Source of the DNA: Reclinomonas americana ATCC 50394
Taxonomy: Eukaryota
Assembly (NCBI GenBank): GCA_048213135.1
Contig: PS015309.1
Span: 1 to 40,861, forward strand
Direction: 5' to 3'
Length of the DNA stretch: 40,861 bases
The notes below the pieces were generated by a model. It saw only the letters and a program-made list of their open reading frames with translations. It searched no databases and was not told the origin of the DNA. Of this stretch, positions 1-38,000 are shown one piece after another; position 1 is the stretch's first letter, and each line of letters opens with the position of its first letter. A program made the position numbers and the translations under genes.

Positions 1-5
1 TGCGC

Positions 6-3000
6 ATGTCACACGCCTCGTCGCACGGAGCAGGCGGTGCTCTCCACCACGGCTTCTCCGTCATCTCCGCCGTGCACGAGTCTGCCTCCTCCTCCTCCTC
101 TTCCTCCTCTGCTGCGAATGCGTGCCCCGGGTGGCCGGAGGGCTTGGAAAACGTGCATCCGTCGCTGCGTAACACTGACTGCACGCGACCGGCGTTCCTC
201 TCCACGCGACGCAATGAGCAACTCGGCACCATCATTGATACGTTTGTGTCGCCTGCGTTCTTCTTGAAGCCGGGTCAGACGGTGCGTGCATTTTCACACA
301 CGCAAAGAGAGAGAGAGAGTGTGTGTGAGAGAGAGAGAGTCTTTGTGTGTGTGTGCATGCGTGCATTTCAAATTTGTGACATGCATTGTGTGAATCTGCG
401 CAGGTGAATTCGAACCCCGATCCCAGTTGCGCCTTTTGCTGACTGCCCTGTCTGTGCACTCGTGTGAGTGAGAGAGTGACGCTTGTATGTACGTGTGTGT
501 GCAGGCAAGACGCCGCCGTTCATGATGCCGCCGGGAGTCATTGGTGAGTTGTTTTGTGATTTTTTCGTCAATGTTTTGTTTGTTGTCTTGCGCTGACATG
601 CGTGTGTTTTTTGTGGTGGTAGGCGTGGTCCGCATTCATGGCGATGTGCGTGTGTCTGTTACTGCTGCTGTTGTGGCGTGTGTGTCTTTGCCTGACGTTG
701 TGCGCGCTGTTCGCAGGCTGTCGATTCGATGCTGCAGGTGTGAGGCGCGCAAGGCCAGTCTGCCGTGGTGCTTGTCTCTCATTCTCCCTTTTTTTTTGTA
801 GCCGATTCCGCTCTCCGAGGCCTACTTGGTGAGTCGCCCTGCGTGTTTCCTGTGTGGCAGAGACTGTGGCTGATGTGAGCGCGCAGCATCACTGGGTGGC
901 CGGCAGTCCGTTCATCAAGAGCTGGCCCTGCAGTGACATGTTCACCTTTGGCGGAGTGCGTACTGGCACATGTGTTTCGCGCACACGGACGCCGTCACTC
1001 ACTCTTTCGCATCCGTGTGCAGGGTGCCGAGACACGCCACACTTCGTGGGCTTCCCCGGATCCCGCCTACGCTGTGATCACCGACACCGCCAAGGACTAT
1101 TGTTGCGCTCCCCTGTGCTACGGAGATCATCGGTGGGGTCCTTTTTGTTGTGACGCTCTGTGTGGTGTGTTGTAGGGCTGGTCAATTACCACATTTTGGA
1201 TGTGCGCGGTGTGCCGGAGGACAAGATGAAGGCTTGTTGCGTACAATCACGGTCGTTTGCTTGTGCTTCCACCGTCTGTGGCGTCGCGTTGACCATGGGG
1301 TTGTGACGTTGTGCGCAGGCCTGGAGTGCTGGTGCCCCGACGGCTCGACTGGCGGAGTGGGTTGCTGCCGTAATGGTGAGGAGGGGTGCTTGCTTTGAAA
1401 CGTAGCATTCCACTCATGTGTCCGTTTCGTACGCAGGCCGCATGTGCCCGCAGACTGCCGGTGCCAACTTGCCGACCAAGAGTTGCGTGCGACTGAACAC
1501 GTTGTCGAGGAGGAGCAACGCATTCTCATCGATGTCGTGCAGCTCGTTACATCAAGTACGAAGTCGAGTACTTTGCCGACATTACCGACATCAAGCCGCT
1601 GGACGTGATTGTGTTTGATGGTGTGTCCACGTGCGCAATGGAGGTTGCTGGTGAATCACACTCGCTGACACGCGTCCATTGTACAGCTGCCGAATGCAAT
1701 GTCGAGTTCGACATTTCGTCGGCTGACGGAGTGCGTGTTTTTCTTAAATTTGTCGCAGAGTTTGGCGGCGACCGCACGTTCTCATGTTTTCCTCGTCGCA
1801 GTGTACTCGTGACTCAAAGGACGCCAAGTGCATCCAGGTGCAGCGCGGCGAGCAAGTCGTGACCAAGGATATCAATGTGCTCGGCGCTGTCGGCCACCTG
1901 CACACGGGCGGCATCAGCTTGACTGCCACTGTGCGCCTCGGCGGCGCCACCGGCCAAGAGGTGCTGATTTGCACCTCGCTGCCCACATACGGCACCGGTG
2001 AGTGAGCAACCCGTCATCGTGTAGCCTGTTTGCTCTCTGGTGCCTCATGTGGCGCGTGTCTTTCAGGCTCGCCCACCGACGTCGGCAACGAGGGTGGCTT
2101 CCTCGTGGGTATGAGCTCCTGTGCGCTGGACGAGCCGCTCTTGGTGCCCGCCGGTAGCATTATGACCATCACCGCCCAGTATTACCGTGACAACAAGTAC
2201 CTCGGGGTGCGTGTGTGAGTGCGCAGCGGTAGCACGCGAGCGGGAGACTAAACTCCAATTCTCCGACTGGCAGGTCATGGGGCTGATGAATGTGTTCGCA
2301 AACCCGGCGCCTGAACCCGCGTGCATGCTGCCCGAGGACGCCTCACAGGTGCACCCGTCCATTCGCAATCGTGACTGCTCGCAGCCGATGCGTCTGGAGA
2401 CCGTGAAGAACGCCGACGGCACGTACACGGACACGTTTATCTCGCAGGCTCTCTTCATGCGCCCCGGCACTGTCGTTGCGTGATGGCTGTGTGGTGGCGA
2501 GATGAAGAAATAATAATCAGCAGAGCTCATGCGTTCCTCGTGCACACAGATCAACACGGATCCCCGTGCGTGACGTCGTTGAAATTTGTGTCGTGCCGTT
2601 CGCTTGCAACTCACCGCGTACTGCACGCAGGCTACACTCCCGGCTTCATGATGCCCGAAGGCACTGTTGGTGAGTGCGTGCGTGCGTGTGGCACCGTTTT
2701 GAAAGGGGCTATATAAACGCTGTACTCACTGCGATGGTGCGTGCGTACAGCTGTCAAGAGCATCAACGGCGAGGTAAGTCCGCCTTTCCCTTGCCTCTCA
2801 CGCAGTGTCAGAGATGCCAACGATTTTGTGTTTTTTCTGCAGGTTGTGGACTCGATGCTGCAGGTATGTTTGTGTGTTTTTCTATTTTTTGTGTGGTCTC
2901 CACGCTCACATCGTGTGTGATGCCGTAGTCGATTCCTCTTTCCGAAGTCTACATGGTTTGTTTGGTGGTGCTGCATGGTTCTATTGTGGTGCGAACGTGA

Positions 3001-4668
3001 GCCTCACTTTTTTCTGTGCACGCGCAGCACCATTGGGTCGCCGGTACATGCGAGGGGAAAGTCCTTCTTCGCACGCGTTCGATCTGGACTCACACCCTTG
3101 ATTTTGTGCGAGTGCAGGAAGCCCGTTCCACCGGAGCTGGCCGTGCCGCAATCAGTTTGTGTTTGGCGGAGTTGCGTGTCGCCTTTCCATCACTGTGCGG
3201 GAGCTTGTGCTCATCTCCACCGGTCACGCAGGGCGCGGAGAGCCGTCGCACAGACTGGAGCACAAAGAATTCGGCATTCGGACTGGTGACCAACACCATC
3301 GCTGATCGCTGTTGCGTTGTGGTGTGTTGTTGAAGCGACCATGTTTTGTCTCACGTGCTGCGGTCGATGGTAGGGCTGGTGAATCTCCATCTGATTGATG
3401 TGCGCGGTGTGGCCGACATGAAGCACTGTTGCGTGGAGACTGCACCCACAGATGGCATCTTGCTGGCTCGTACCAACCTCCTCGTGCACTACATGCAGGC
3501 ATTGAGTGCACATGCCCTCCGGAGCGAGGTGGTGGAAGCGTAGAGTGCTGCCCCGACGGTTACCAGTGCACATTGCGCGCCGGTGCCAACACTGACCTGC
3601 GCAGTGCGTCCTCAGTTTCTATGTGCTTGTCTGTTGTGCGTCCTCACCGTGATTCGTGACCGCAGCTCGTTTCCTGAAGTACAAGGTCGTCTATCGCCCG
3701 GCGTCCAATGCCGAAATCCCCGCCGACGTGTTTGTGCTCGACGGTGCGTGTTTGTTGCGTATACTGCGTCGCTGGCGGCTTCACTCATGCAGTGTGCCCT
3801 GCTGCAGTGGCCAATTGCGAAATTGAGTTCAACGTGTCCGCGGTGCCGGGGGTAAGTCTTTTCCGCTGTATAGTGCGGTTGTCGACGACGACGTGCTCAT
3901 GTTGTGTTTCGCGGTTGATTGCACCACGCAGTGCACGCGTGGATCGACCGACTCCAAGTGCATTCATGTGCTGGAACGCCGCTACACGACGACCGTTGAC
4001 ATGCAAGTGACGGGCGCGATTGGTCACCTGCACATTGGTGGCCGCAAGCTGACCACCACCGTCCTCGTTGGTGGCGCGAACGGTGTGTTGACGTTGTGAT
4101 CGCTGCACTCCACAATACTCCTCTTTGACATCATCACCATTGTGTGCAGGTGAGGCGCAGCAAGTGTGCAACTCGATTCCGCTGTACGGCACGGTGAGAG
4201 CGCGAGCTTGTCGTAATTGTTTGCTGTCACTCTTCCTCACTCACGTGCTTGTGAGCAGGGCCCGGTGACCGAAGCCGGCAACGAGGGTGGCTACGTCGTC
4301 GGTCTCGGCACGTGCACCATTTCGCCGCCCATGTTCGTGCCGGCCGGCAGTGTGTTTGTCACGCGCAGCGAGTACGACCGTGATCAGGATTACAACGGAG
4401 TGCGTACGCGACTTGTCTTCTCTATCAACCGATCACATTGTTGCCTGAATCTTGTCCTCGCCAGGTCATGGGTCTCATGAATGTGGTCGGCGCTCCCTTG
4501 GCGGCCCGTGCGCCGCCGCAACGATCGTGGGCGTGGGTGGCCGTTGCTGCCATCAGTGCCGCTGGACTCATTGTGCTCCTCGTGCTGCTCATCCGGTCGG
4601 CGTTTGGCCGCGCGGCGCACGGCATGATCCCGGAGAGTGTTGCCACTCGTCCGCAGCAGCTGCCGTGA
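6..4668 (+). CDS. Multi-exon protein with two tandem SURNod19 (stress up-regulated Nod19)-like domains and a C-terminal TM helix; probably 5'-partial
   Basis: Spliced domain 1 reads PIPLSEAYL-HHWVAG..GGGAETRHT..WLVNYHILDVRG..CLECWC..GGVGCC..CNVEFDI..VGHLHTGG..LICTSLPTYGT..VGNEGGFLVGMSSC..YLG-VMGLMNVF. Domain 2 (about 2330-4490) repeats these motifs (SIPLSEVYM-HHWVA, WLVNLHLIDVRG, CIECTC, GHLHIGG, AGNEGGYVVGLGTC, YNG-VMGLMNV). They match remembered SURNod19 motifs. A hydrophobic tail WAWVAVAAISAAGLIVLLVLLI precedes the TGA at 4666-4668. Bases 1-33 look like an intron 3' end, so the true start is probably upstream of the window. Confidence 0.8.
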
Positions 4669-4856
4669 GCATCGTCACTGTTTTTTTTCTCTGTTGACCA
4701 CCCTCCCTACACACTAAGCGCCCCCTCGTTGATTTGATTAAAAGAAAGGCGTGTTTTTTCCACCTCACTCTTTTATGAGGGGCATACTAAGACAACTGCG
4801 ACAGCATCGTGTGCGCGATAAACAAAAATACTGCTAGCGACTTGCAAACAAGTCCG

Positions 4857-7714
4857 TTACGGTGATAGACCGGTAGCAGCGTCGTCGTTGGCACCGTGCG
4901 ACGACGGCGACGCATCACGCACCGGCGGCTGCTGAGTCATAAAGAAACTGTTGGGCTGACTTATCGGTGCGGCCCGAGAGGGAGTCACCGCATCGGACGA
5001 GCGCGCCGACGACGGTATCGTTTTCAGCAAGTCCAAAATGGAGGTGCCAGCCGGTGGCGTCTCGAATTGAGGCACTGCGAGATGGGGAGAAGTGAGAATG
5101 CATTCTTCCTCTCCTCTCCTTCTGTCTACCCCTCCGTGAACAAGCACACCTCGCATTCCCGAGCTGACAATTCGACGTGCCGCCTGACCCACTGGTGACG
5201 CCGCCACACTGCTGGAGGCCGATCCGGAACGCTTGCCGCGCTTGCCTCCGGCGCTGGCGGGCACTGGTGATGAGGGCGCGGTGGACGAGGCGCCTGGTGG
5301 GTGGTACAGATGCGTGAACCGGAGCTGCTTCAGGGCGTCCACCGTCGTCATCAACTGCTTGATGTCACGCTGCTGCTGCGCCACTTTTTGCTGCTCCATT
5401 CGCACGTTGCCTTCCAACTCACGGGCGCGGTCCTTCAACGACTCGACCTCGTTCAACTTGGCGACATATTGCGCCGCCAGATGCTCGAAAATCGCACGAT
5501 GCCGTCCCTTCAGATCCTCCTTTTCGTGGAAGTGCTCCATCCACAGACGATTGGCGAGGCCACCGAGGTCACGGAACGCCTTGCCGGCTCGATTCGGCAC
5601 AAACTCGATAAACATGTTCTCGATGCCCTTGACCACGTCAAACGGATCCTGCATCTCCGGCTGCTCCACCGGTTTTGACGCTTGCTGCGCAGTCACCACA
5701 CTACCGATGAGCAAGTGGATGTGCGTGTGGGGTAAAGGAGCAGAGAGGGTGTGGTACGCAACCGATGACCACCGATGCCACAAGTTGTTGACCGACTTGC
5801 ACAAGTCAATGTAGTTCTCGCTGGTCTCGGTGTACTTGACAATGGTGGCCTGCATGACATCCACGTTGCGCTTCATGTCGGCCAGCTTTTTCTCCATCTG
5901 CCACACAGCGCATGAGTACCACGTAAGAAAGTGGTGTTGGCGCATTGTTCTGTCTCGCTCGCACCTTTTCGCGTTCCTTTTGGTGCTCCACGTACATCTG
6001 ATGCGACAGCGACGCTTTCTCCTGTCGCAGCTGTGCCACCTTCTTCTCGAGCTCGTTGCGTTCCAGCTGCACTTCTTGCAGCTCAACAAATTGCTCGCGC
6101 TGTGCAACAACAATGAGCGGGGAGATGGATGGATGAAAATAAAAGAGAGGGAGGAAACCACACGCAACATTGGTGGTCTCCAGGTTGGCCAACTTGGCGA
6201 GAATGTCTTGCGCGCTGTCAAATGCAAAGCTCTGCGTCAGCTCCTCAAAGATGGGCTCCATGTTGCGGAAAATCTGCATCCCCCCCCCACAGCAAGTCAG
6301 CAAGCAGCCAAGATAAGCATGCAGGCACACGCATGCAAGCAAAAGACGCGACCTTGAGTTTGCGCTCATTCTCGATCTGGCGCTCGCCGACCTTGGTGAT
6401 CTTCTGCTTGTACATGCTGATCATGTGCTTCAACGAGTCGCGTTCGTCTTCCAGCGACTTGACGCGCTCTTTCAGTTCCTGCAACGCACCACATGTCAGC
6501 CACCGCGACAGAGCGACTGCTAACAATGGAAGTGACGAACTCTGACTTGCAGCGAAAAGTCGGCCCGGTCCTCCATCACTTGTGTCAAGCGCTTCTCGTA
6601 CTCGGACACTGTGCGCTCGTGCTCCTTTTGTGCCTCGATCTTGACGTCCTCCACATGCAACGCCTTCATGTACTCCTTCATGTTCTCACGCGCTCGCACC
6701 TGCGCCGCGTCCTTCCACTTGGCCTTTTCAAAGCGCTCCACGCGACCTGCAACCACCCACACACTCTCTCAGTCAATCCTCCGTCACGCAAGGAGCATCA
6801 CGGCTATTCACGCAACGAGACGCTTGTGCCTTTTCTGCGTCGGACAAGTTCTCTCGCACTCGTCGCAGCAGCTTGCGCGACTGGTTCTTCATCACCGATC
6901 GTGCAGACTTGCGTTCGACGGCGGCGACTGCCGAGAACAAATCACCGCCAACCTCGGCAGTGCCACGGCCCGACGCACCCCTTCCACCACCACCACCACC
7001 ACCACCCTCCGAGTCGGAACTAAACGGCAACGACGCCGGCGAATCGCGCCCGCCTCCGACGGGCGAGCTCGAGAAGCGCTCCCGATCACGGTGCGCCGCT
7101 GCACGCGCCGAGATCCTCATCTCCAGCTCCCGATCTTCATTCTCATTGCGCGACAAGACGTCCTCGAGGAATTGCTGTTGAATGGGGAAATGTGTGAGAC
7201 GAATCACCGCCATCACAGCCACTGCAAGCACAACGAGCGCACCTCATCGTCTTGGTGATCAAACTGGCTCGGCGTCGACATTTTCGCCTGTCGCTTGATC
7301 TCGCCCTCCATCTCCATCCACCGACGTTCCTGCCAGTCGCATGATCGCACTCAGCACAAGACAGAGAAGGGGATAGAGAGACGGGAATGAGAGTGCACGC
7401 ACCACAATCTTCTTGCGGGCACTGAGCGAGCGCGCCGCACTCAACGGCGGAGGCGGGGTGTTTCCGCCCGCCGCACTCGTCATCGACGACGGCGACGCCG
7501 CTCCCGCTCCCGTGATCGACGAACCAGACGGTGAATGCAGAAAGGCGCCGGCCGCCGTCGACATGCGCACACCGGGCGCGAGCGGAGGCGGTGCATGCGT
7601 CGAACGCAGCTTGCTCAACGTCGGAATCGAGTTTCCCGAGCCCTGTTGCCCCGCACTCGCGGCCGCCGCCATGGCTCCGCCCACAAGTCGCGCTCGATGC
7701 GTGGCAGTCGACAT
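4857..7714 (-). CDS. Multi-exon coiled-coil protein of unknown function with low-complexity termini
   Basis: Exons join in frame through GT-AG introns: MSTATHR..RKKIV|ERRWMEME..DDE|QFLEDVL..KAQAS-RRVERFEK..DFSLQ|ELKERV..KLK|IFRNMEP..LETTN|REQFVELQ.. ending ..ATGLSP* at 4857. Heptad-like E/K/Q/R-rich composition. No family recognised. Confidence 0.65.
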
Positions 7715-10281: not shown

Positions 10282-10429
10282 AAACGTCTGCTGGCCATCG
10301 CGATTTCATTTCTTTAAAACCCCATGCAGCATGCTGCGTGATAACAGCACCACTCCACGGGGTGCGCTATCATCATCATCTCATCACTACCACCAGTGAG
10401 GTCGCCAACAAAACCTCGCGAGCGACACC

Positions 10430-13400
10430 TCAATTGGCGGTCTTCTCGCTGAGAACAGTGATAATCGCCTGCAACCGCCGCTCGAGTGGCGACGATGGCG
10501 CGAAACCCGGTGCAGCGGCTTGCAGGTGCAGCAGAATGTTCTCGCCCACCGGCTTTACGTGCGGCAGCACCGACTCGTCGGTCGGATCGAAAGCCTGTGC
10601 CGCCTGCAACAGCCACGATAGGCGCAGCTCGCAGTCCGCCGACGTTGCACTGATGAACAGCGCCAACTGCCACGAGAGACAAGTAATCAGCAACCACGGA
10701 TCAAACACACTCTCCCTCCCTCTCCCCTCTCCCCTTGCACTCACCTGTTGCATCAGTGACAGAATGATGCCGGCGGAGAGGCGGGGCCGCGCAGAGGACA
10801 AAACGTTGCGCACATCCAACAACTCGCACGCCTGCACCAGCAAGCGGATATCCTGGTAGCGCAGCACATTGACAAAGGCCTCCTCGTAGTTGCCGGCATC
10901 CAGCAGCGGTCGAATCGACGCCAGGGGCGAGACGGCTTCGGGAGCAGCCGCAGCCGCAGTCGTCGCCGGAGAAGCGCCACCGGCGGCGGCGATCGGCACC
11001 GAAGCCAGTGTGGCCTGCAACTCGGCCACTTGCCCTTGCAGTGAGCGAATGAGGGCGGCTTGCTCCGCAAACTCGCTGCGCGACGGCAGCTGCGACAGCG
11101 ACTGGCGGAACTCGGCCAACCACTCCTCCACTCGCGACTGCATGACACCACCGAGTGCCACGGAAATCTGCTGGAACATGGCGTTGACGACACGCTCAAA
11201 CTGCGGCAGCAGTGTGCTCTCGAGTGCGTTGCGGAACGTGTCGGCAAAGTCCATGGGCTCCGCCGAATGACGCGCCTCCAACTTGGCCATAGCGTGCGAC
11301 AGGCTCTGCTCCAACGGCTCCGTGACTGTACCACGCAGCTGCGCACACACGGCCTCCACCACTCGCGGCACGACACGACCCTTGGTCTGCTGTGAGATTT
11401 GCTCCACAATCACAGCCTCAATGTGCTCCGGCAAATCCTGATTGAGTGTCTCCGCCACCGAGCTGTGCAATCGCTGCAGGCTCTCGTTGATGTGCGCCAT
11501 TCGTTGATCGTGCTGTCGTTGCATCTCCGACCCTACAAGCAACACGGTATGTCAAACAACAACAATGTGACGCACGAGTATGCAAACTAGGAGAGAAAAG
11601 AAAACGCAACGGATCTCGTCGCGGTGTCGAGTCATGACACTCTCCACCGACGACAGCAGTCGCGACTCCAAGCGCGCGAATGCGTCCTCGTCCATTGGCG
11701 ATGGGGCGGACTTTGATATTGCACATGGATGAGAAAATGGAGGGCCCCGCGCAGCACAATGACACGTTCATCTCACCATGCGCTGCGATCCGGTAATCAG
11801 AGGCGATCCGCGGCCGTGCACAGGAGCCATGAATTGCATGTGTCCTGCAGCGTGTGAGCGTTCAGTACCACTGACTCCACACCAGCAACTGTGGAAGCAC
11901 ACTCACCGCCACCGACGCCACCGGCTGGTGTGTTGGCTGGAGTCGCAGAGGCGCGCAGATCGGAGGGCGTGGCGGGCGAGTTCACGGCGGACTGGAAACG
12001 AAGAACGCCCGGCGGGCTTTCCACACCATTGTCGCTGCTGGCAATCGACGAAGCCGACGTGCTGTTCTTGGCCTTTTTCGACAGCAAGGCCTCCAGCTGC
12101 GCAGCATCGATGCCTGGCAGATGGGGGCCTGCTGCTGCACACAAGCAAACAGAAAACCGTGCACTGTCATTCAGCAACACATTTTCTGGCACGCAGCANN
12201 NNNNNNNNNNNNNNNNNNNNNNNNNNNNNNNNNNNNNNNNNNNNNNNNNNNNNNNNNNNNNNNNNNNNNNNNNNNNNNNNNNNNNNNNNNNNNNNNNNNN
12301 NNNNNNNNNNNNNNNNNNNNNNNNNNNNNNNNNNNNNNNNNNNNNNNNNNNNNNNNNNNNNNNNNNNNNNNNNNNNNNNNNNNNNNNNNNNNNNNNNNNN
12401 NNNNNNNNNNNNNNNNNNNNNNNNNNNNNNNNNNNNNNNNNNNNNNNNNNNNNNNNNNNNNNNNNNNNNNNNNNNNNNNNNNNNNNNNNNNNNNNNCAGG
12501 CGACTGCGACATCATGGCAGACACGGCGGCAGAGGCCGCAGCCAGCGTCGCAGTGGGCACATTGGAGGCGGGACGAGGTGGCGGTGGCTTGACTGGATTC
12601 GCTGGCGCATCAGTGAGACCACGGAGGGCGGCTTCCAAATCGGCCATTCTCAACGCCCCGGCTGGTGGCGCTTCCGAAGCAGGTGCTGGCGCTGCTGGTG
12701 CGGGTGCCGCTGCTGGTGCTGCTGGTGCTGGTGCTGCTGGTGCTGCTGGTGCTGGTGCTGCTGGTGCTGCTGGTGCTGGTGCTGCTGGTGCTGGTGCTGC
12801 GCTCACTGTCGCGGGCGCTGGAGATTCTGGAGTGTCACACACAAATCGAGCATGAACATCAGGGCACGGACATGGCAGAGCGAGCAAAACAAAGAAAATC
12901 TCACCTGCACCAACGCCATCGTCGGCCGGCATGCATTGATGCGGCGCAAACATGTACACCTGCACCAACAGAAACAGACGGTAAACAATCACATTCATGT
13001 TGATGGTCGCCTTCTTTTCACTCTGTGCGGTGCGCGACGTACCTGAATCACGTCCGTGTTGACAGCATACAAGCACACTTGTGTGTTGTCGGGGTAGGCC
13101 TCCAGCCGCGCCACGCACGAAAGAATGGAGGTCTTCGTGGAGAACTGGCACAGGTGCCGCAAGACTGCACTCGACAAGCAACATTGAGTGATTCGTCAAT
13201 CGCACTTCCAGCCACTGCACTCCACTCCACCGACTTACCTCGGCTCCACGCGCCAACGTCGTTCTCGACTTGCGGAATTTGGTAGTTCACGACATAGAGC
13301 TCCTGACCCTTGATGTCGGCCACAAACAGGAACGGGGCGCTCGTGCAAGCGCACACGCGGTTGAGGAACTCGGTGGAGCTGGCACCGCCAAACCGCGCCG

Positions 13401-14602
13401 TCTGCACGCACTCCAGCGCACAAGGTGCATTCGGTCCCGGAGCCAATCGCCGCAACCGCCACACGCGCAACTCCACGTTGCGCTTGTCTCCCGTGACGAA
13501 CACATCGGGTGCCAAGAAATGCACCGAGAACAATCCGTCGTTCTTCGAGGAGATCGTGTCGGCCAGTCTGGCATACGAAGGCGCCTCGAACACGGTCACG
13601 TTGGCGTTCGAGTCGCCGCCCACCAGCAGACCACCGTCGGGCGACCACTCGAGAGCCACCACATTCTGCTCCACGACGTGAGCACAGCGGGGGTGACTAC
13701 AATTCACAAAGCAGGAAAACAAAACACACCGATGCAAACGTATGAATGCGGCGCTTGGTCACATCGTCCAGCACATTGTCACGACCGCGGTCGCCCAGCG
13801 TGCTCAGCCGCACCTCGTGCAGCGTGTGCTGGAAGTCGCAGCACACCAAGATATCGCTGTCGAGCGGATGCAACGCAAAGCGCGTCAGTGGCGCCGAACC
13901 ACCACGCAAGGTGCACATCAGACGACCACTGCCAAGCACATCATCATGATCAGTCAAGGACCAGCAAAAACCACGTCCGCGCTGCATGAAACAAACGACG
14001 CAACCCCAGTGCAGCGCTGACATTCGCCACCTCGATCACCTCGTGCACCGCCACCACACCACTGGCATCAATGGTCACCACGTACGCCACCATGAGCGAA
14101 TTCCGCGGTGCCGCCGCCACAATCTGCAAATCAATGATTGCCGCCTCACGATCGGCCAGCAACGTCTTTTGCGCTGTTCGCTTGTGCAGCACACGAATGC
14201 GGTTCTCTACATCACGAGTGTGAGTGGCTCCACTGCTGTCGGGTGGCGCGCGCACAGAGACAACTCAACTCTTGACCACGTAGCAAATGAAGTGTTCGGA
14301 GACGGCCACAATCTCGCCGAAAAAGTAGTTGGCTTCGGTGGAGGCGACTGCCACAGCGCGGGAGACCAGCTCAGGCAGTGCACTTCCACTGTCGGACGAG
14401 GAGAGCAGTGCGTGGCGACGCGGGATCTCACACGCCACCGACGACAGTGGAACACCGGCATACCGCGCCTCGACCGCGCTTCCTTCTCCTTCACTTCTGC
14501 GGTGCGCGAGAAGGCAAAGACAAGGGGGAAAGAGAGAGAGAGGGAGAGTGAGTGAGAGCGAGGGGAGAGAGAGAGCGAGGGCGCGGTGGACATGCGCTTC
14601 AT
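10430..14602 (-). CDS. EDC4: Enhancer of mRNA decapping 4 (Ge-1/VARICOSE)-like protein; spans a gap, start tentative
   Basis: The N-terminal WD40 region (GEIVAVSEHFICYVVK-KNRIRVLHKRTAQKTLL, ALEWSPDGGLLVGGDSNANVTVF) is followed by an A/P/S-rich linker and a helical region (FRNALESTLLPQFERVVNAMFQQI). The C-terminus resembles Ge-1 (LSAGIILSLMQQ|LA..LRLSWLLQAAQAFDPTDESVLPHV). Confidence 0.85.
12199..12496. other. Assembly gap inside the EDC4 linker
   Basis: Run of N. Confidence 1.
12681..12800 (-). repeat. Coding tandem repeat of (GCA/CCA)n encoding an (APAAP)n linker in EDC4
   Basis: gctggt/gctgctggt iterations on + strand, read as AAPAPAAPAPAAP on - strand. Confidence 0.85.
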
Positions 14603-14802
14603 TTCCGCGCCCACGCGCGCTCACACACACTCTCTCGCACACACAGGTGTGCATGTCGAGCGCAGGTCAAGTGTATGCATAGAGAGTGTGCATGTGTGGT
14701 GGGGTGGAACGCAACGATGAAGCCATGCGGATGAATGACGAACTTGCAAGGTGGGGGACAAGTCAGAGTCCTGTGCGCGAGCGGCTTCATCGTCAACTTT
14801 GC

Positions 14803-27590: not shown

Positions 27591-28472
27591 TCATTTGCGC
27601 CGCAAGTCACGCAGCGCCGATTTCGAGCGTGCAAACAGCAGCTCCGACGAGGGCGCGTGAGCTGCAGTGCGTGAGGCCCATTGCGACAAAGAGTCGTGAT
27701 GCTGCCGGCCGCCGTAGCAGTGCCAGATGGTGACAAACGGCGCCGTCTTCTTGTGCGTGTCACTCACTCGCTTCTCGCGTGAGCCGGGCGGCGGAATGTA
27801 GGTGTACCGCCGACCGGCGGCTGGCACCAGATAAAAGGGGAACTGGGTGCGCGCCACTGCATCCTCGTAGTAGTCCTTCTTGTGCATAAAATTGGGCGCA
27901 AGGAGGAACCAAGGACGACTTGATTGGCTGCAGAATCGAGCGATGCGCTGCAAGTGATCTCCGCTGTATGGCTACAGCTCTCATCATCAGCGCCGTCGAC
28001 AGCAGCAGGATGCACCAGGACGAAAAACACCAGACGCAACTGGGTTCGTCAGCAGCACGTCGTACTCCTCCACTTCGCCACTCTCCCACTTGGCGTAGCA
28101 GTCCTCGTTTCGATTGTAGACGTTGGTGAAGCCGAGAGCGGCCATGCGCTGCACCACGCCACCGGCGCAGTAATACGGGTCTGCAGGCCACAGACGTGGT
28201 CAGCAATACGTAGCCAGACAGGTATGGACATCGCAACCACCTACCATAGATCCGCAGCTGACTCGGCGTCTTGCCCAGCATGGCGGCCAGCTGGCGCAAC
28301 ACCGGAGCAATGTCCTCGTACGCCTCTGGCGGTGTTTCGCAGTGGTCATCCTCGTCGACCTCGAATGCATACGCCACAGCAGCTGCTGATGCTGCAGCTG
28401 TTGTCGTTGTTGTTGTCGTGGTTGTTGTGGTGCTCTCCTCCTTNNNNNNNNNNNNNNNNNNNNCGAGACGAC

Positions 28473-28544
<72 letters not shown>

Positions 28545-28664
28545 CTTCTTCAATGGAGGTGCTTCGTCATCGACGTCATCTTCTCGCTCACGTTTTCTGC
28601 TCTGCTTCTCGTCGGCAGGCTCTCCGGCCTTCGGCTTCTTCGCCTTTCTCTCTGTCTCACTCAT
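27591..28664 (-). CDS. Putative SAM-dependent amino (N6-adenine-type) methyltransferase with NPPY motif
   Basis: MSETERKAKK..PLKK|..DDHCETPPEAYEDIAPVL..LRIY-DPYYCAGGV..GFTNVYNRNEDCYA..YDVLLTNP|PYSGDH..PWFLLAPNF..|KTAPFVTIWHCY..DLRRK*. The NPPY catalytic motif is rebuilt across the intron at 28040. Substrate unknown. Confidence 0.7.
28478..28540. repeat. (CA)n microsatellite in the first intron of the methyltransferase gene
   Basis: About 31 uninterrupted CA units next to the 20-N gap at 28444-28463. Confidence 0.95.
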
Positions 28665-28978: not shown

Positions 28979-31900
28979 ATGCGAACGTTACGAGGCGAGA
29001 TGCGAGTGCCACTGCTCTGCGTTGTGCTGCTGCCGGTGCTGCTGTTGTTGCTGTGCGCAAGTGCAGTTGGTACGTGTCACACGTTTGCATCGCGCGAAAG
29101 AGAGCAGTGAATCGCCGTGCCCGTCATCTGACTTGCATGTGTGTGTCATAGTGCGGGCCGATGAGTTTGTGGTGCGCCACGCCCATTGCTCACGACAGCT
29201 GACGCTGTCGACGACCACGATTTTCGCACCGGCGGCACTGTGTGCCGAATTGCATGACGCCGAGACGGTGGTGGACTTCTCTGTTTCGTTTACCATGAAG
29301 AAGCCGACTGGTCCGCTCTACGTGCGCGTCCATCACCTGACGACGGAGACGAGTTTGAGCGCGTCGGCCCACCTCGACGGTCGTCCAGTGCCGGTGCAGA
29401 TCTCGGGTGAGTTTTCGACATTCTTCGTGCCGGCCGGAACGTCGACAGTGGCGATTGAGGCCACTGCCTCGCTTGTGCGCATCGAGTACCAGAGCGCCGA
29501 CGCACGGAACACCAATGCGGAGTGGAGCAACGCTGCCGAACTGGTGGCGACAACGATTGTGGCCACGGGCGCGATGGAGTGCGACCCGCTGACCACATGC
29601 TCCGGCGGTGGCACATGCAACACCGACGGCACATGTGCGTGCTTCTCTGGCTTTGGTGGCGCCAACTGTGCGTGCAATCCGTCGGTGACCTGCCGCGGGC
29701 ACGGTCGTTGCAACGCCGACGGAACGTGCCAGTGCTTCCCCAACTGGAAGGGAGGTGTGTAGTGTGTGCGCACCGTGCACCCGCAGCGCAGCGTTGAAGG
29801 AAGACACTGAGTCGCGCGCCTGCACAGATCAATGTGCTTCGTGCAACACGGACTGGTTCGGAGCCGAGTGTTCGCGCTACTGCAACGCGTCGCAGACCTG
29901 GTACGTACATGTCGTGCGCACGGGTGAGGTGTTGAGACAGACCACTGACCACTTGAGAACTTGCTTGTCGACGTCAGCCGTGGCAATGGATCCTGCAGTG
30001 CCGGCGACGGTGCATGCCTCTGCTTTGCTGGCTTTGGAGGATCGAACTGTGCGTGTGCCAAGTCCACCTGCGGCAACTATGCCATTTGTGATCCGACTGG
30101 TGTTCTCGGCGAGTGTGTGTGCCCGGCCGGCTTCGGCGGACCTGCGTGCACATGCTCCAACGCAATCAACTGCAACGGCAACGGCTCGTGTCGTGCCGAC
30201 GGCACCTGCCAGTGTGATGCAGGTGCTGGCGGTCCGAACTGTGCGTGTCGCGATGTCGTCGACTGCAGTGGACATGGTGCGTGCCAAGCCAATGGTTCGT
30301 GCTTGTGTGCACAACCGTTTGGAGGCAAGAGCTGCGCCTGCGACGAGAGCAAGTGGTGAGTGATATTTGAAAACCCCCCATTTTTTCGTATGTGTCGCTG
30401 AGCAACACTCGCCGCCTGTTGCAGCACACCGGGTCGCAGTACCTGCGACAAGAACTCCACCGACGGCTCATGCTCGTGTTTGCCTGGCTGGTTCGGTGCG
30501 GACTGCCAGTGCGATCCCAACACGTGTGGCAAGTCGGCCGGTCGTGGAGACTGCGCAGCCAAGGGCACGAGTGGCGCCTGCGCGTGCGCCGCTGGATTCG
30601 GTGGGCCTGGTTGCCAGTGCTCAGACGCGGTGAACTGCTCCGGCAATGGCACCTGCAATGCTGACGGCACCTGCACCTGCAAGGCTGGCTTTGGTGGCAA
30701 GGACTGCAGTTGTGTCGAGTCGTCGTGCTCGGCCGCCGGACACGGTCGCTGTGATCCGAACAGCACCACTGCGGCGTGCTTGTGTGACAACGGCTTTGCC
30801 GGTCTGCATTGCTCATGCTCACAAGCCAGCTGCGGCTACAACAGCAATCCTGCCGTCTCACGTGGTTCCTGCGATCCGACCAGTGGCAGCGGTGCGTGCC
30901 AGTGTGCGGCTGGGTGGGGTGGGCGGAACTGTTCATGTTTGGAGTCCGGATGCGGCCATGGTAAGTGCAATCCATCCGCATCCGACGGCTCGTGCCTGTG
31001 CGATGCACCGTACACGGGTGCCGACTGCAGCTGCAATTCGACCACTGACTGGTGAGGGGAGAGAGAGAGAGAGAAGCCGCAGCGTGTGATGATTGTTTGT
31101 TGAATTTAACGTTTGTTCGCTGCACAGCTCAGTGACTCTCGGTCAGGGGCAGTGCGACAGCAGTGGGCTGCGCGGCGCTTGTGTGTGCGGCATTGGTTTC
31201 GACGGCCTCCATTGCTCATGTCGCAATGCCAACTGCAAGAACAGCACCTTCTGCGATCCGTCGGCAAGTGACGGTAGCTGCCTGTGCTCGGACTCGTTTG
31301 TCGGCAAAGATTGCGGCTGCGACGGAGCTGTCGAATGGTGAGTGAGAGTTCTGCAGGCGACTACGTGTGGACGTAGGCTTACCACACACTTGCAGCAATG
31401 TGAGCAACAACGGCGTGAAGCAGGGTTCGTGCGACGCTCATGGAACCAACGGTCAGTGCGCATGCGAGAACGGCTGGGTCGGCAGCACGTGTCAGGTGGC
31501 CTGCAATGCTGCCACCGACTGTTTCGGCAACGGGACGTGCAATCCCGACGGCTCATGCGCGTGCTTTGAGGGTTTCGGCGGCCTGAACTGCGCGTGCGAC
31601 AGCCGTCACTGCAGTGCGATTTCGTCGCGCAGTCAGTGCAACGCGCTGGCCACCGATGGCTCGTGCATCTGCGAGGCTCCGTGGAGTGGTGCCGACTGTC
31701 AGTGCAACTCGCAGTCTGCCTGCTCGACTGCCCTCGGTCACGGCCAGTGCGACCCGCACGGTACTAACGGCGCGTGCGTGTGCGAGCCAATGTGGGGTGG
31801 TCGCGACTGTTCGTGCTCTGAGTTGCGAAGAAGAAGAAGAACAGCATCGCAGCGGTCAGCTGTAGTGCACTTGTGAATCTCACCCCACCACTGCCTGTGT

Positions 31901-34869
31901 GAACATACAGAACCTCGTGTGGCTTCCCGTCGCGTGGTTCGTGCGATCCGCTGGCCACCGCCTCAAGCTCGTCGCAGTGCATTTGTGCGGGAAACTACAC
32001 CGGTCGTGACTGTGGCTGCGATGCGGCTGCTGACTGCGGTATTGCGAATGGTCGCGGAGAGTGCGACGCCAGTGGTGTGAACGGCAAGTGCGCGTGCCAC
32101 GGAGGATTTGGTGGCCAGAACTGTGCCTGCACCGAGTCTGTGTGCGGTGCCGACAGCGGGCGAGGCAAGTGCAACCCGACCGCCACAGACGGCTCGTGTG
32201 CCTGCATGGCTCCGTGGACTGGCCTCGACTGTGCGTGCAACATGGCCTCGGACTGCGGCGTCGGCGATGGTGAGCGTGACTGCAAGGGACAGCGCTGCGC
32301 GCTTGTGAGAAACTGACAGCTAGTGGTCTCTTGCAGATCGCGGGCGCTGCAACACTGCAAGCACCGAAGGCCGATGCATCTGCAACAGTGGTTTTGGTGG
32401 CCGTCAGTGCGACTGTCTGCATTCTTCGTGCAATCAGCCGAACGGCATGTGCGATCCGGAGTCGTTCACCGGTGCCTGCCTTTGCAATTCACCTTGGTGC
32501 GTCACGCAACAACGGTCCGTCGTGTACCATGCACTTGCAGTGCACTCACTCGCACGCATATTGTTACAGGACTGGTGCCGACTGCTTGTGTGACTCTAAG
32601 TCATTCTGCAACGTCAGCAGTGGCCAGGTACGGCACCAAAGAATAGACACGAGCAACTATTTGTGCAGAGGAGCTGTTGCTGATTGACGAGAGTGCTGCT
32701 ACACCCAGGGTTCGTGTGCAACGAACGGCACGCACGGAAGCTGCACATGTGCTGCCGGTTGGCTCGGCGCCACCTGCTCCGACGTGTGCGACTCGGACAC
32801 GTACTGCTCGGGTCGCGGAACGTGTGGTGCGAACTCCACGTGCACGTGCAACGCGTCGTGGACCGGCAACGCCACATGTTCAGAGTGCACGCCCGGCATG
32901 TACGGAGCCAGTTGTGATGAGTCATGCGCAGTGTGCGACACTGCTGGCACAGAGCGGTGCTCCGACGGCACTGCTGGAACCGGTTGCGTGTGTCGTGCCA
33001 CATTTACAGCGGCGACGTGCGACACTTGCGTGGCGGGTAGCTTTGGTGTCTCTTGCACACCGTGCGCGTCGTGTGTGGCCAGCAACACCACCAGCTGCGA
33101 CAGCGGGCGCACTGGGCGGGGCTGCCAGTGCAAGACTGGCGCCGCTGGTCCGCTGTGCCAACACACCGACATTGCCACGTGCAACGGCCGTGGTGCGGCG
33201 CAGGCCGACGGCTCGTGCATCTGCTCGGGTAACTTTGCTGGTGCCTCCTGCACCGAGTGTGCCAAGGGCTACTTTGGCGCCAACTGCAACAGCGCTTGTG
33301 TCACATGGTCTGTTGGCAGTGGCGACGCATGTATGTAGTTGACGTCGCACTCATATCCTCCACCACCACAGCGCGCTAAACAACACACTCCAGTGCGAGG
33401 ACGGCATCAGTGGCCGTGGATGTGTGTGCCAGGCAGGCACAGCCGGATCTCGGTGCCAGTACACGGATGCGCAGACTTGCAGCGGTCATGGCGTGGCACA
33501 GGCTGATGGTTCGTGTCGGTGCGACTCACGCTGGCAGGGTGCCGCGTGCTCGGAGTGTGCCGTCGGCTACTTTGGCGCCGACTGCTCCAGTTCATGTGCC
33601 TTGTGGTGCGCTTCGTGTGTTCTTCCTCCTTTGCTTTCGTGTTCACACAATTTTTGCCAACGCCACGTCCCTGTTCTCCTTCTCCAGCACGGCCGAAAAC
33701 ACGGCATCATGCAGTTCGGGTCTTACCGGCACCGGCTGCATCTGCAACGCCGGCGCCGTCGGTTCGCTGTGCGAATTCTCCGACGCGGTGACGTGCTCTG
33801 GACACGGCACAGCGCAGACCAATGGCACTTGCCTGTGTGCGACGCCCTGGAGTGGTACTGCGGCCGACTGTTCCAAGTGCGCCGCTGGTCTCTTTGGCAA
33901 GACTTGCACCGATTCGTGCACCTCGTGTTTCGCCAACGGCACCACGTCGTGCCTCTCCGGCACCACTGGCTCGTGCGTGTGTCGCACTGGGTTTGCCGGC
34001 AAGTTCTGCGACGATTGCACCACTGGCCGCTTCGGCAGCGACTGCTCTGGCAGTTGCAGCGCATGGTAAGTGAGAGAGAGAGAGAGAGACTGTCGACACC
34101 CACGTGATGTGATGCTTACGCCCTTGCACACAAACGCACACACACACACAGCAACACGGAAAACAGTACAACGTGCGACTCGGGTCGTGCTGGCGGTTGC
34201 CGCTGCCGCAGCGGCACTGCCGGCCCTCTGTGTCAGTATTCGAACGAAAGCACGTGCTCAGGGCACGGAGTGGCGCAATACGATGGCTCATGCATCTGCG
34301 ATGCGGCGTGGAACGGCAATGCGTCGTGTAGCGAGTGCACCGTCGGCTTCTTTGGTAGCACGTGCCAGAACAAGTGCTCACAGTGCGACAGCACCGGAAC
34401 TGCATCCTGTGCGTCGGGCACGTCAGCAACAGCCGGCTGCAAGTGCGCTACGGGCTTTGCTGGCCTCCTGTGCAGCGACTGCGCGGCTGGCCGCTTCGGG
34501 GCACAGTGCCAGAGTCGTTGCGCCGATTGTGAAGCGCAGGGTACGCAGTCGTGTTCCGCGGGTCGCCAAGGCTCCGGGTGCGTGTGCAAGGCCAACGTAT
34601 TCGGCGCCAGCTGCGATCAGTGCGCCCCGACACAGCCGCTGTCGTGCACCTCGGCCAACAACGGCTCATGCAATCCAGCCACCAACAAGTGCGACTGCTA
34701 CCCGGGAGTCGGCGGTGCATTCTGCCAGTGTCGTCCGGTCGAGACCTGCAACGGCAAGGGCGTGTGTGCTATTGACGGCTCATGCGTCTGCCACTTCCCG
34801 TACGCCGGCGCCAACTGCACGGATTGTCTGCCAGGGTACAGTGGTCCCAGTTGCACCAAGGTGCAATAA
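28979..34869 (+). CDS. Large (roughly 1,600 aa) secreted EGF-like/laminin-EGF-like Cys-repeat protein
   Basis: Signal-like MRVPLLCVVLLPVLLLLLCASAV (ATG at 28979 or 29000) and a Cys-poor N-domain of about 140 aa. Dozens of CSGxGxCxxDGxCxCxxGFGGxxC repeats follow, switching after about 32750 to units with CxxC (C..C..GxFGxxC). The frame ends GPSCTKVQ* at 34869, with no TM segment seen. Confidence 0.85.
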
Positions 34870-35093: not shown

Positions 35094-38000
35094 TTAAGCG
35101 TTGGCAAGTTTCATGTGCACCGGTGGATCGCACTTGCGCTTGATAAACTGACCAATGTACACCGGCAAGCACGAGCAAAGGGTGATGAGGCACACCTTGA
35201 GCCAGAACGTGGCCGTCAACACAAAGGCCAGATCTGTGGAGAGAGAGAGAACGATTAGTTGGCGGCACAGCACGCAACACACGCACGGCTACGCACTCAC
35301 CAAACTCAGACGGCAGTGCCAAGAACGACGAGAGGTAGAGCACGAGCGAGAAGACCACGGCGTACACATTCCACATCTGAATCTTGTGCAACTCGAACGC
35401 CACCATCAGCATCTCGGTGAGGATGAGGGCGGTAAAGGTGATGGAAACAACGTTGAGGAAGGAGTTCTCAAACAGCGCAATGGCCAGCAGCATAATCACG
35501 CCGCCTTGGTAGACGCTGAGCAGGAACCAGATGAGGAAGGTCTTCATCGATAATGTGCGACCCTACAACGTCGACACGCCACACAGTCAGTGACAGTGAT
35601 GCCGCAACACTCACACGTGCGTGCGTGCACACCTTCAACAACTCGCGATACAACTCGGGGTACGTGAGCGCGACATCGGCAGTGACATCCTCATCCAGCA
35701 CCAGTGAGAAGACAGGGAACATGGTGTACAGTGTGGCGTACCTATGTGTGACAAGAGGGGAGGAAGAGGTAAGCGTCACCGAGATGACGCAGTGGGGAGA
35801 GATGACTAACCCAACAGCCAGCCAGCCGGCGTAGATTGGCAGTGGTGAAAAGTAAAACAGCGCGGAAAAGAGCGCTTGGATGATCGAGATGATGAGGCCG
35901 CGGTGAATCACAAACTGCGCCAGTCGAGCACTCCGATTGTATGAGTTGCGCCCGTGCCAGACTGCGATCGCATGAGCAAGAAAAACGCGTGTCGCACAAT
36001 GCACATTAACTCGTGGAGGACGCAACACAGGAGACGAGTAATGTGTGAAAACTGTGTGATTGAAAAATCGGCGGCCAGCGACGCCTGCTTGCCCTCCTTG
36101 CCCTCAATGCCAATGCCAACATCGGCTGCGTTTCGCGAACAAGCAACATATCAGTGGCCCGCACAAACACGTAGGCAGGCCGAGGAGGCGATTTGCACGC
36201 TTTGTTACCTGATTGAATCATGGCTACGTCGTTGCCACCGTCGCCGACTGAACACGCACGAGCACCAGTGATGCGTCGAATCAAGTGGACCACCAAGGCC
36301 TGTGCGTGGAGTGTCAGGCATAGCCCGGCAACTTGCTGCACGGCTGCAACGCGTTGCGTACCTTTTGTGTCGGAGAACAGCGACAGCATACGACTGCTGG
36401 CGCGCGACATGCCAACTCGGCAAAGCGTTGGCGCACACTCTCCGACAAGCAGAATCCGAGTGTCAATCCATCGACCACAATCACAGTCTCCGTGGTGGCA
36501 TCCTCGCCACGCCCTCGCACACCCGTGGAATCGACTGCGAGAGATAAGTCAGCGCGCAGAGAGCAGCACAAGTCACTGCGCGCAACACTGTGCAACGCAA
36601 CACTGCAAGTGGCCGCGACCACCCATCATGCCGGCCAGACGATCCAACTCCAAGTTGGTGGTGGTGATGTCCGAGGCCTGCCGAAAAGCAATGATTACAC
36701 GTGCAGGTGTTGTGGCGTGCATGCAACACACTTTGCAAACCATGAGCTTGAAGATAATGTGGGTGCGAGAAAACAGTCGGGCACTTCGCGCAATGCAAAT
36801 AGCAGTTTCCACCTTGTCGCCCGTCAGCATCCACACCTTGATGCCCGCATTGCGGAAGTTCTCCAACGACGCCTGCACCTCATCCTGCACGGCACACGCC
36901 CAGCAGGTGAGCTGCAAGATAGATACACGATTCTCCACCACCTCATACACACACACACCTGCAACTTGTCCTCCACACCAGTGACGCCAATTAACGTGAG
37001 ACCGCGTTCCAGGTAGTGCTCCAGAACCTCTCGCACGCGACCAGCCCGGTTCTGCAACCACAACGACGACGACGACGACGACACGTTAGGGTGGGAAGTC
37101 GGTGGCGGAGCACGCGAAATGGTACAAACCTCGATCGCTGCCTTGGCGTCGTTGTGCTGCAACGTAAACTCCTGGAACTCGTCCTCGGTCAAGTACCGGT
37201 ACGCAAACACCAGTGTGCGCAGGCCTTCACGTGCCATATTGTCGCACTCCTCCACGAGCCAGTCGCTGGTCAGCATTTTGCTCATGACCGCATCCGCACT
37301 GATGCGCGACGCGTCAACAACATGTTGCTTCGTCGCCACACACGCAAGAGAGAGAGAGAGAGACGCACCCTTTGATGTAAAACACAATCTGACCCGTCTC
37401 CCTCGATCGCACAATGATGCCCATGCGTTTCGTCTCCGACGTGAACGGGAACACATTCAACACTTCGTATTCCTCCGCGACACCGGTGGGCGTCCGAAGC
37501 GTGATGGTGCTCAGCGAGCGATCCTCCAGCACCAGTTGCACACTCTCCGTGAACTAAGTGCGGGCAAGTCGATGTTTCAGCGACGCTGACATGCAATCAT
37601 GGAGCGGAAATACACACCTGCACGAGAGCAACTTCGTCGGGCGACGACGCCTGGTAAGTGTGCTTCCCGTTCTCGACCACCGGCGTCACATTGTGACACA
37701 GTGCAATGGCGCGCACCGCCATGGTCACGCGCGCCACGTCCTCATCGCCGAGTGCCAGACCGTTGGCAGCAGACGCTCGCGGCACAGTGGAGCGGCTCAT
37801 CAGCGACGAACCTTGCACACGCATTCGCATGAGCACGCTGCTGCGATCGAAAAGCACGACGCACACGACGCAACTTGACTCGCTGTGTGGCAGGTGCACG
37901 CCAATAGAGTCGACGTCGAGCAGACCGCTGCCGGATGCGGAGCCTTGCGGCGATGCCGCATCGGCGACGGATGAGGTCGGCGACATGACATGCGCGCCGT

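Follow-up and report, generated by a model that had tools for sequence, protein, structure and literature searches.

How does a spliceosome find the start of an intron when the usual start signal carries one base too many? This question is raised by a window of 40,861 bases from Reclinomonas americana ATCC 50394 (contig PS015309.1 of assembly GCA_048213135.1; 'the window' denotes this whole stretch of DNA), a eukaryotic stretch of about 57% G+C that is dense in short introns and contains four runs of N. The normal core around its 5' splice sites, hereafter donors, is the seven-base G|GTGCGT, in which the bar marks the cut and the first G is the last base of the exon (position -1, followed by +1, +2 and so on in the intron). 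A preliminary description of the window, made from its letters and a list of open reading frames (ORFs), had proposed a second and abundant class of donors, GTTGCG or GTTGAG, which resemble a canonical donor with one additional T and follow an exon end other than G. In the following, we refer to GTTG[CA]G donors as the class and name each intron by the coordinate of its first base. About a quarter of the window's short introns appear to start with GTTGCGT instead of G|GTGCGT, and we consider it reasonably probable, if far from certain, that GTTG[C/A]GT is a real donor class, which would be read by the U1 small nuclear RNA (snRNA) in a register shifted by one base.

Distribution of the motif

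All 26 GTTGCG and three GTTGAG motifs that the preliminary description had listed are present at their coordinates and on their strands, and a T follows the motif at 24 of the 26 GTTGCG sites. The base at -1 is indeed other than G at 27 of the 29 sites (T at 12, A at 10, C at five and G at two), the exceptions being 5762 and 26941. In total, GTTGCG occurs 66 times on the two strands of the window, which hold 5748 GT sites. When its copies are placed on a gene-strand map, derived from Pfam matches to coding-like ORF pieces and from homology, GTTGCGT is found 32 times in sense and five times in antisense orientation; 25 of the sense copies serve as donors in the models. Among 1688 heptamers in a strand-bias test that included heptamers with at least 12 copies, GTTGCGT (32:5) ranks second, directly after GGTGCGT (21:0); these two heptamers differ at their second base only.

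The motif also stands out in a gene model that is blind to donor sequence, i.e. one that assigns an equal score to every GT and relies on codon usage, open frame, an acceptor and branch heuristic, and an intron penalty. GTTGCG is the commonest donor hexamer in this model, with 17 of 148 donors against 1.7 expected from its share among all 5748 GT sites; all 17 picks lie on the coding strand given by Pfam and homology, and the model finds 16 of the 29 listed sites again. Applied gene by gene on the correct strand, the same model places 25 GTTG[CA]G donors in 118 introns (21%). If the class is forbidden, the score of every gene falls, by 3 to 46 bits, while forbidding GTGCGT costs 0 to 31 bits. 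Two other model variants were set aside: one without codon potential gave spurious antisense chains, and the other, which used a length prior and lax acceptors, predicted too many introns (254 on both strands) and had 21 of the 29 listed sites among them.

Gene models and introns of the class

Our final set comprises 116 introns in eight genes and draws on three sources. The gene with two tandem SURNod19 domains (gene A) was curated by hand, and the P4-ATPase gene (NEO1/ATP9 type) was modelled from homologue votes, with intron 36601 added by frame closure. Genes other than gene A, the P4-ATPase gene and CLPTM1 were modelled with a donor table trained on the window, which rewards the motif and thus introduces a circular element. 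In this set, 32 of the 116 introns (28%) have GTTG[CA]G donors. Of the 29 listed sites, independent modelling thereby retains 27 as starts of introns; five others had not been listed (12654, 13456, 14004, 19333 and 36601). The earlier estimate that roughly a fifth of the introns belong to the class is fair in view of the donor-blind share (25/118), and judged from the DNA sequence, a second donor class accounts for about 21–28% of the modelled introns in the window. The class is spread more widely than the preliminary description had it, as the new gene map places it in nine of the ten genes rather than in eight.

Removal of the class introns generally matters for the reading frame. In 22 of the 32, the length is no multiple of three, and among the remaining ten, seven contain an in-frame stop codon, which leaves 5762, 6168 and 13456 as in-frame, stop-free introns that are open to read-through. 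All 32 are of the form GT...AG, with CAG as acceptor in 22, TAG in nine and AAG in one, and their median length is 70 nucleotides (nt), compared with 69 nt for the other introns. A YTNAY motif lies within 40 nt of the acceptor in 27/32 class and 66/84 other introns, and the branch-like motif CT[CG]AY is present in 21/32 and 55/84, respectively. Likewise, introns fixed by homology measure 62–83 nt, mostly end in CAG and have a branch motif resembling CT[CG]A[CT]. Going by these sequence features, the class consists of short, ordinary introns of the major (U2-type) GT-AG kind. TAG acceptors are overrepresented in the class (9/32 versus 6/84 in other introns, Fisher p = 0.005), which could be a modelling effect.

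Two special origins of the class introns were considered and rejected. U12-type (minor) introns are marked by an RTATCCTT donor and a TCCTTRAY branch site and are served by separate snRNAs; the introns described here start with GTTG[CA]GT, and near their acceptors they show the CT[CG]AY motifs that other introns have. A family of introners or transposon-derived introns is not apparent either, given that only 16 pairs among the 116 introns share at least three internal 9-mers and that none of these pairs joins members of the class into a family.

Position of the cut

As neighbouring GT or GC dinucleotides could serve as alternative donors, we asked how precisely individual junctions are placed, using a spliced protein-to-DNA aligner in which any GT or GC donor has equal cost and any AG is accepted as acceptor. 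The P4-ATPase junction at the RLL-F-WHG motif, which had been described as forced by this motif, is placed from 36026 to 35962 by 18 of 18 homologues. The same had been claimed for junction 28040 in a small methyltransferase gene and likewise holds: the splice reads DVLLTNP|PYSGDH, where NPPY would become NPVPY with a GC donor 3 nt downstream and NPAY if the cut were one base later.

Further junctions are placed by paralogy within gene A. Removing 31 introns of 58–122 nt from this gene, eight of which start with GTTGCG, yields a single ORF of 823 codons, and its two SURNod19 copies (337 and 334 amino acids) align collinearly. At four aligned positions, a GTTGCG donor in one copy faces a GTGCGT donor in the other at the same codon position (426/2566, 2475/282, 3171/956 and 1482/3604). 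Shifting the donor three bases downstream costs 15 points of the paralogue alignment at 1482, 11 at 3171 and seven at 426; at 2475, the shifted alternative is compatible with paralogy (score change +1). Two further pairs, 1102/3311 and 1236/3428, have class donors in both copies, so that paralogy is compatible with the GT as well as with a GC donor 3 nt downstream. A representative search started from a SURNod19 exon returned three weak matches, and the two that were put into the spliced aligner, one of low complexity and one covering the C-terminal part only, did not help, so that the junctions of these two pairs stay between the GT and the GC at +3.

In the CLPTM1 gene, junction 15982 is used by 11/20 homologue alignments, with 3/20 taking the GT at 15979. 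On the strength of homologues, motif or paralogues, we therefore treat six junctions (36026, 28040, 1482, 3171, 426 and 15982) as fixed to the exact base in our models. This partly revises the preliminary description, which had named 426, 5762, 15982 and 37874 as sites with alternatives: 5762 and 37874 may indeed be read through, and 15982 has the minor competitor just mentioned, but 426 is fixed by paralogy.

For the remaining sites, the evidence is of variable strength (Table 1). The splice at 31822 in the EGF-repeat gene gives the product CSCSETSCG, which has the C-S-C-x-E-x-x-C spacing also seen in the sister repeats CSCVESSCS and CSCLESGCG. Removal of intron 36601 closes the frame between the homology-anchored phase-0 introns 36958 and 36361 (283 + 173 = 456 nt), and an EDC4_C domain lies downstream of intron 11610 in the same frame. 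Candidate 15622 is used by fewer than two of 20 homologue alignments, three of which use 15605 instead, and candidate 12654 has A instead of the usual T at +7. Lastly, none of 18 homologue alignments uses 37874 as a donor; segment 37812–37874 could be either retained or spliced and is thus a candidate for alternative splicing.

The exon-terminal base

The most striking property of the class, which the new models uphold, is the base in front of the cut. A G at -1 precedes 4/32 class donors but 63/84 other donors (Fisher 1e-9), and the difference persists when the comparison is restricted to GTGCGT and GTGAGT donors, of which 22/34 have -1G (1.5e-5). In the subset that is best anchored by homology, paralogy or hand curation, -1G is found in 0/10 class donors and 35/41 others.

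At the same time, the class carries the core of an ordinary donor displaced by one base. Its positions +4 to +7 (G in 32, C in 28 or A in four, G in 32 and T in 28 of the 32 donors) match positions +3 to +6 of ordinary donors. Donors with a G[C/A]GT core differ by their exon end: of the 26 that follow a G, 22 are ordinary, and of the 40 that do not, 28 have the extra T. A T at +3 outside the class, for example in GTTTGT and GTTAGT donors, goes along with -1G in 9/10 cases; therefore, the loss of -1G belongs to GTTG[CA]GT and not to a T at +3 as such. Individual examples of these other donors are 37129 and 35810 on the minus strand and 17273 and 2956 on the plus strand, which are fixed by 18/18, 17/18 and 17/20 homologue votes or by curation. 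They keep -1G despite their T at +3 and hence behave as donors of the ordinary register.

Pairing with U1 and competing explanations

These observations suggest a scheme in which the second base of the normal core G|GTGCGT is replaced by T. The result, |GTTGCGT, has its only GU one base upstream of the usual place, and the cut would move with it to the position before the first G. The 5' end of U1 would pair with the same heptamer, but in a register moved by one base, so that the intron's +1G would pair where the exon-terminal G normally pairs, with +2U left mismatched. The cut itself would be fixed later, through recognition of the GU in the U6/U5/Prp8 catalytic core, as has been proposed for rare human shifted-register sites. 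The class would then do without -1G, which ordinary donors prefer, because +1G takes its pairing place.

Several observations weigh against this shifted-register scheme. We calculated nearest-neighbour duplex energies with the standard (universal) U1 5' end, which stands in for the organism's own U1, and obtained mean values of -1.75 kcal/mol for the class, -3.1 for H|GTG[CA]GT and -8.3 for G|GTG[CA]GT, i.e. the class pairs most weakly. Because of these weak energies, standard pairing fails to account for the prevalence of the extra T among donors without -1G. The predicted partner of +1G is C9 in seven, C8 in five and another base in six of the 32 donors, and +1G is unpaired in 14, so that no register is consistently preferred; for explicit cores, the shifted register gives +1.8 and the bulged register +2.2 kcal/mol. 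The earlier proposal that +1G stands in for the missing -1G is in line with the -1G statistics; the predicted pairing of +1G is mixed. In addition, T is the commonest -1 base of the class (13/32), while pairing with U10 in the shifted register would favour A. The enrichment of TAG acceptors does not fit either. Finally, all counts come from one 40.9-kb window, and 22 of the 32 class donors as well as most of the 'other' donors stem from the donor table trained on it.

The weak pairing also speaks for a dedicated adaptation, in which the class would be read in parallel to the ordinary donors by a second U1 isoform matching GUUGCGU (for example, with A replacing the C that faces +2U), by an altered U6/U5/Prp8 or by a helper protein. 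Despite this weak pairing, the class constitutes the majority of the donors that have a G[C/A]GT core and lack -1G, it is highly uniform up to the T at +7, and its TAG acceptors hint at a wider difference between the classes. Yet branch motifs and intron lengths are alike in both, and in the tunicate Fritillaria borealis, donors have changed genome-wide with an unchanged U1 5' end, according to bioRxiv 10.1101/2025.08.15.670264; a variant snRNA is therefore not required. On balance, we find such an adaptation unlikely. The same doubt attaches to its genome-wide form, in which G|GUGCGU and H|GUUGCGU would be co-equal classes that share one recognised core but are cut one base apart with respect to it, and in which selection would keep the second class through a dedicated spliceosome adaptation. 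The latter might consist in a second U1 isoform that is complementary to GUUGCGU, or in a changed U6, U5 or Prp8 interface that tolerates an additional base separating the paired core from the scissile bond. A further explanation is the canonical register of standard U1 with one U (+2 or +3) bulged out, which corresponds to the 'bulge +2/+3' register validated in humans (PMC4856993). It would account for the composition of the motif, GT + T + GCGT, whose bases after the extra T equal +3 to +6 of the commonest ordinary donor, and for the four paralogous SURNod19 positions, which differ by a single T at a fixed exon boundary. However, -1G should remain favoured in a bulged register through its pairing with C9 of U1, which is at odds with its depletion relative to GTGCGT and GTGAGT donors, and the energy is no better than that of the shifted core. 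As a bulged U would still gain from -1G, the shifted register would fit the pattern better, and we regard the bulge as improbable.

The two remaining explanations concern the junctions themselves. If the true donors were other GTs nearby, or if the supposed introns were coding, the motif would merely coincide with our splicing models. Four or five sites do have alternatives (37874, 15622, 5762, 6168 and 13456), and the trained model rewards the motif. Such an artefact is nevertheless very improbable, considering that the donor-blind model still puts the motif first, that the heptamer is strongly strand-biased, that several junctions are exact to the base by homologues, paralogues or motifs, and that in-frame alternative donors near the sites are mostly non-consensus. 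Least probable of all, and close to negligible in our judgement, are GC-AG introns that start 3 nt downstream (GTT|GCGT), so that the exon keeps GTT. This alternative is in frame at every GTTGCG site, and moving both donors of the pairs 1102/3311 and 1236/3428 adds a matched cysteine and nine points to the paralogue score. Elsewhere, the same move carries the costs given above for 1482, 3171 and 426, turns NPPY into NPVPY at 28040 and breaks the repeat spacing at 31822. All alignments at 36026 take the GT although GC was scored alike, the GC at 15985 has fewer than two votes among the 20 CLPTM1 alignments, and the GTTGAG sites have no GC at +4. The shifted register is thus the reading that we prefer.

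Genes of the window

The ten genes of the window and the introns of the class are summarized in Table 1. Outside the class, the two SURNod19 copies of gene A differ in further respects: intron 1376–1436 (plus strand) is found in copy 1 only and intron 3044–3117 (plus strand) in copy 2 only, while one shared intron is offset by one base (1998 in copy 1, phase 1; 4194 in copy 2, phase 0). A WD40-like piece (12500–14650, minus strand) and an EDC4_C piece (10433–11491) look like parts of a single gene for an EDC4-type decapping enhancer (10314–14654), which would be split by the N gap at 12199–12496.

In gene F, removal of 25 introns of 58–79 nt gives one long ORF that ends in Peptidase_S74, an endosialidase chaperone domain more familiar from phage tail spikes. 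The product of about 1750 amino acids has GGD-rich, beta-helix-like repeats, and a database search with a 290-residue piece returned no relatives. Its paralogue, gene G, is truncated by an N gap. A long (GT)n run adjoins a 20-N gap at about 28470–28545, just upstream of the methyltransferase coding region. Third codon positions in the P4-ATPase exons are 76% G+C; a metagenome scan with one of these exons returned 80 loci but no close kin, the best relative being 69% identical over 94 amino acids. A protein atlas gave a weak lead (score 0.91) to clusters labelled Chlorophyta, on which none of our conclusions draws. An Rfam scan of the window found no RNA family and hence neither U1 nor U6 within it.

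Table 1. Introns with GTTG[CA]G donors and genes in the window. Candidate introns are marked as such; 'new' denotes sites that the preliminary description had not listed; stop codons are in frame and refer to the retained intron.
Feature	Coordinates	Strand	Sequence	Basis and remarks
Intron, SURNod19 copy 1, phase 1	426..504	+	GTTGCGCC	Curated ORF; stop at +14
Intron, SURNod19 copy 1, phase 1 (Y-W-LVN)	1102..1175	+	GTTGCGCT	ORF needs removal; length not divisible by 3
Intron, SURNod19 copy 1, phase 1 (KA-C-LEC)	1236..1318	+	GTTGCGTA	ORF needs removal; length not divisible by 3
Intron, SURNod19 copy 1, phase 1	1482..1542	+	GTTGCGTG	Paralogous GTGCGT donor 3604 at same codon position
Intron, SURNod19 copy 2, phase 0	2475..2549	+	GTTGCGTG	Paralogous GTGCGT donor 282; stop at +6
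Intron, SURNod19 copy 2, phase 0 (FGG|GAE)	3171..3231	+	GTTGCGTG	Paralogous GTGCGT donor 956; identical exon end ggcgga
Intron, SURNod19 copy 2, phase 1	3311..3373	+	GTTGCGTT	ORF needs removal; stop at +20
Intron, SURNod19 copy 2, phase 1	3428..3498	+	GTTGCGTG	ORF needs removal; length not divisible by 3
Candidate intron, gene B, -1 G	5685..5762	-	GTTGCGTA	Codon-potential model; 78 nt, in frame, stop-free; read-through possible
Candidate intron, gene B	6100..6168	-	GTTGCGTG	Donor-blind pick; 69 nt, in frame, stop-free; read-through possible
Intron, gene B	6747..6816	-	GTTGCGTG	Donor-blind pick; length 70, not divisible by 3; stop
Intron, EDC4-like gene	11533..11610	-	GTTGCGTT	Donor-blind pick; stop at +56
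Candidate intron (weak, new), EDC4-like gene	12588..12654	-	GTTGAGAA	Trained model only; -1 C, AAG acceptor
Candidate intron (weak, new), EDC4-like gene	13379..13456	-	GTTGCGGC	Trained model only; in frame, stop-free; many alternative donors
Intron (new), EDC4-like gene, -1 G	13929..14004	-	GTTGCGTC	Donor-blind pick; length 76, not divisible by 3; stop
Intron, EDC4-like gene	14207..14269	-	GTTGAGTT	Stop at +2; no other in-frame GT/GC donor within 45 nt
Candidate intron, CLPTM1	15622..15717	+	GTTGAGTT	Stop at +2; no in-frame alternative donor within 45 nt
Intron, CLPTM1, phase 1	15982..16043	+	GTTGCGTC	11/20 homologue alignments; 3/20 take GT 3 nt upstream
Intron, gene F	18343..18406	-	GTTGCGTG	Donor-blind pick; length not divisible by 3
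Intron, gene F	18490..18556	-	GTTGAGTG	Donor-blind pick; stop at +2
Intron, gene F	19103..19175	-	GTTGCGTC	Donor-blind pick; length not divisible by 3
Intron (new), gene F	19264..19333	-	GTTGCGTT	Trained model; length not divisible by 3; stop
Intron, gene F	21454..21527	-	GTTGCGTC	Donor-blind pick; length not divisible by 3; sole in-frame alternative is GC at +3
Intron, gene F	21788..21845	-	GTTGCGTC	Trained model; length not divisible by 3
Intron, gene F	22616..22685	-	GTTGCGTT	Donor-blind pick; length not divisible by 3; stop
Intron, gene G	24768..24846	-	GTTGCGTC	Donor-blind pick; length not divisible by 3
Intron, gene G	25706..25775	-	GTTGCGTA	Donor-blind pick; length not divisible by 3; sole in-frame alternative is GC at +3
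Intron, gene G	26601..26667	-	GTTGCGTC	Trained model; length not divisible by 3
Intron, gene G, -1 G	26868..26941	-	GTTGCGTC	Trained model; length not divisible by 3
Intron, methyltransferase gene, phase 0	27972..28040	-	GTTGCGTC	NPPY motif; donor-blind pick
Candidate intron, EGF-repeat gene, phase 2	31822..31910	+	GTTGCGAA	EGF repeat cysteine spacing only
Intron, P4-ATPase (NEO1/ATP9-like), phase 1 (RLL-F-WHG)	35962..36026	-	GTTGCGTC	18/18 homologue alignments, donor and acceptor
Intron (new), P4-ATPase	36535..36601	-	GTTGCGTT	Donor-blind pick; CTGAC branch motif, CAG acceptor
Candidate intron, P4-ATPase variable loop	37812..37874	-	GTTGCGTC	63 nt, in frame, stop-free, AAG acceptor; models read exon
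Gene A, two tandem SURNod19 domains	1-4700	+		Pfam
Gene B, coiled-coil	4857-7700	-		Gene map
NTPase_1 gene	about 9680-10250	+		Pfam
EDC4-like gene	10314-14650	-		Pfam
CLPTM1 gene	about 14750-17580	+		Pfam
Gene F, orphan repeat gene ending in Peptidase_S74 domain	17800-23707	-		Pfam
Gene G, paralogue of F	24406-27341	-		Gene map
Small NPPY methyltransferase gene	27600-28440	-		Gene map
EGF-repeat gene	29000-34800	+		Gene map; no full gene model obtained
NEO1/ATP9-type P4-ATPase gene	35100-40700	-		Gene map

Significance and comparison with known systems

If transcripts confirm the class, it would provide a natural system in which U1-type recognition and the choice of the cut are uncoupled by one base in about one of four introns. 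It would thereby make testable whether U1 pairing or the later U6/U5/Prp8 step fixes the position of 5' cleavage, and it would show a single spliceosome carrying two donor grammars in the same genes. For practical purposes, gene prediction that relies on one donor matrix would get about a quarter of the introns here wrong and introduce frameshifts into most genes with several exons; this genome needs to be annotated with a two-class donor model. In the literature that we searched, which did not extend to supplements and any donor tables in them, we found no description of a GTTGCG/GUUGCG donor class.

Other systems share some of its features. Like U12-type introns, the class is a second set of donors that occurs beside the major one in the same genes; unlike them, it lacks RTATCCTT and TCCTTRAY and shares branch and acceptor signals with the neighbouring introns. 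Unusual donors are found genome-wide in Fritillaria borealis, where a shifted U1 register is considered (bioRxiv 10.1101/2025.08.15.670264) and the U1 5' end is described as strictly conserved. The intron ends of this tunicate are diverse and non-GT/AG and have been linked to U2AF paralogues and to changes in the N6-methyladenosine (m6A) of snRNAs, whereas the introns of the window remain GT-AG and the change consists in a one-base offset of a single motif.

The closest parallels are atypical human donors, which we compare here on the basis of PMC4856993. Human bulge sites likewise start with GUU and have one extra U, after which the downstream bases restore the consensus. They are predicted at 120 of 201,541 donors, or about 0.06% (68 for +2/+3, 51 for +3 and one for +2; Roca et al., 2012, via Table 3 of PMC4856993). 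In the window, by contrast, the class makes up 32/116 modelled donors, and its -1G is depleted, unlike what a bulge predicts. In the human shifted register, all U1 pairs are moved by one position, +1G takes the partner of -1G, and the cut is made at the GU (Roca and Krainer, 2009, via PMC4856993). As in our class, the exon-terminal G is not needed. The human sites form a rare, atypical class, and the site that was tested has a different core, GUCAAGUAU (PMC4856993), whereas the window has a single uniform GUUG[C/A]GU motif at about a quarter of its modelled donors, as predicted from sequence. The class described here would thus be genuine as well as abundant, a variant of a register that humans use only rarely.

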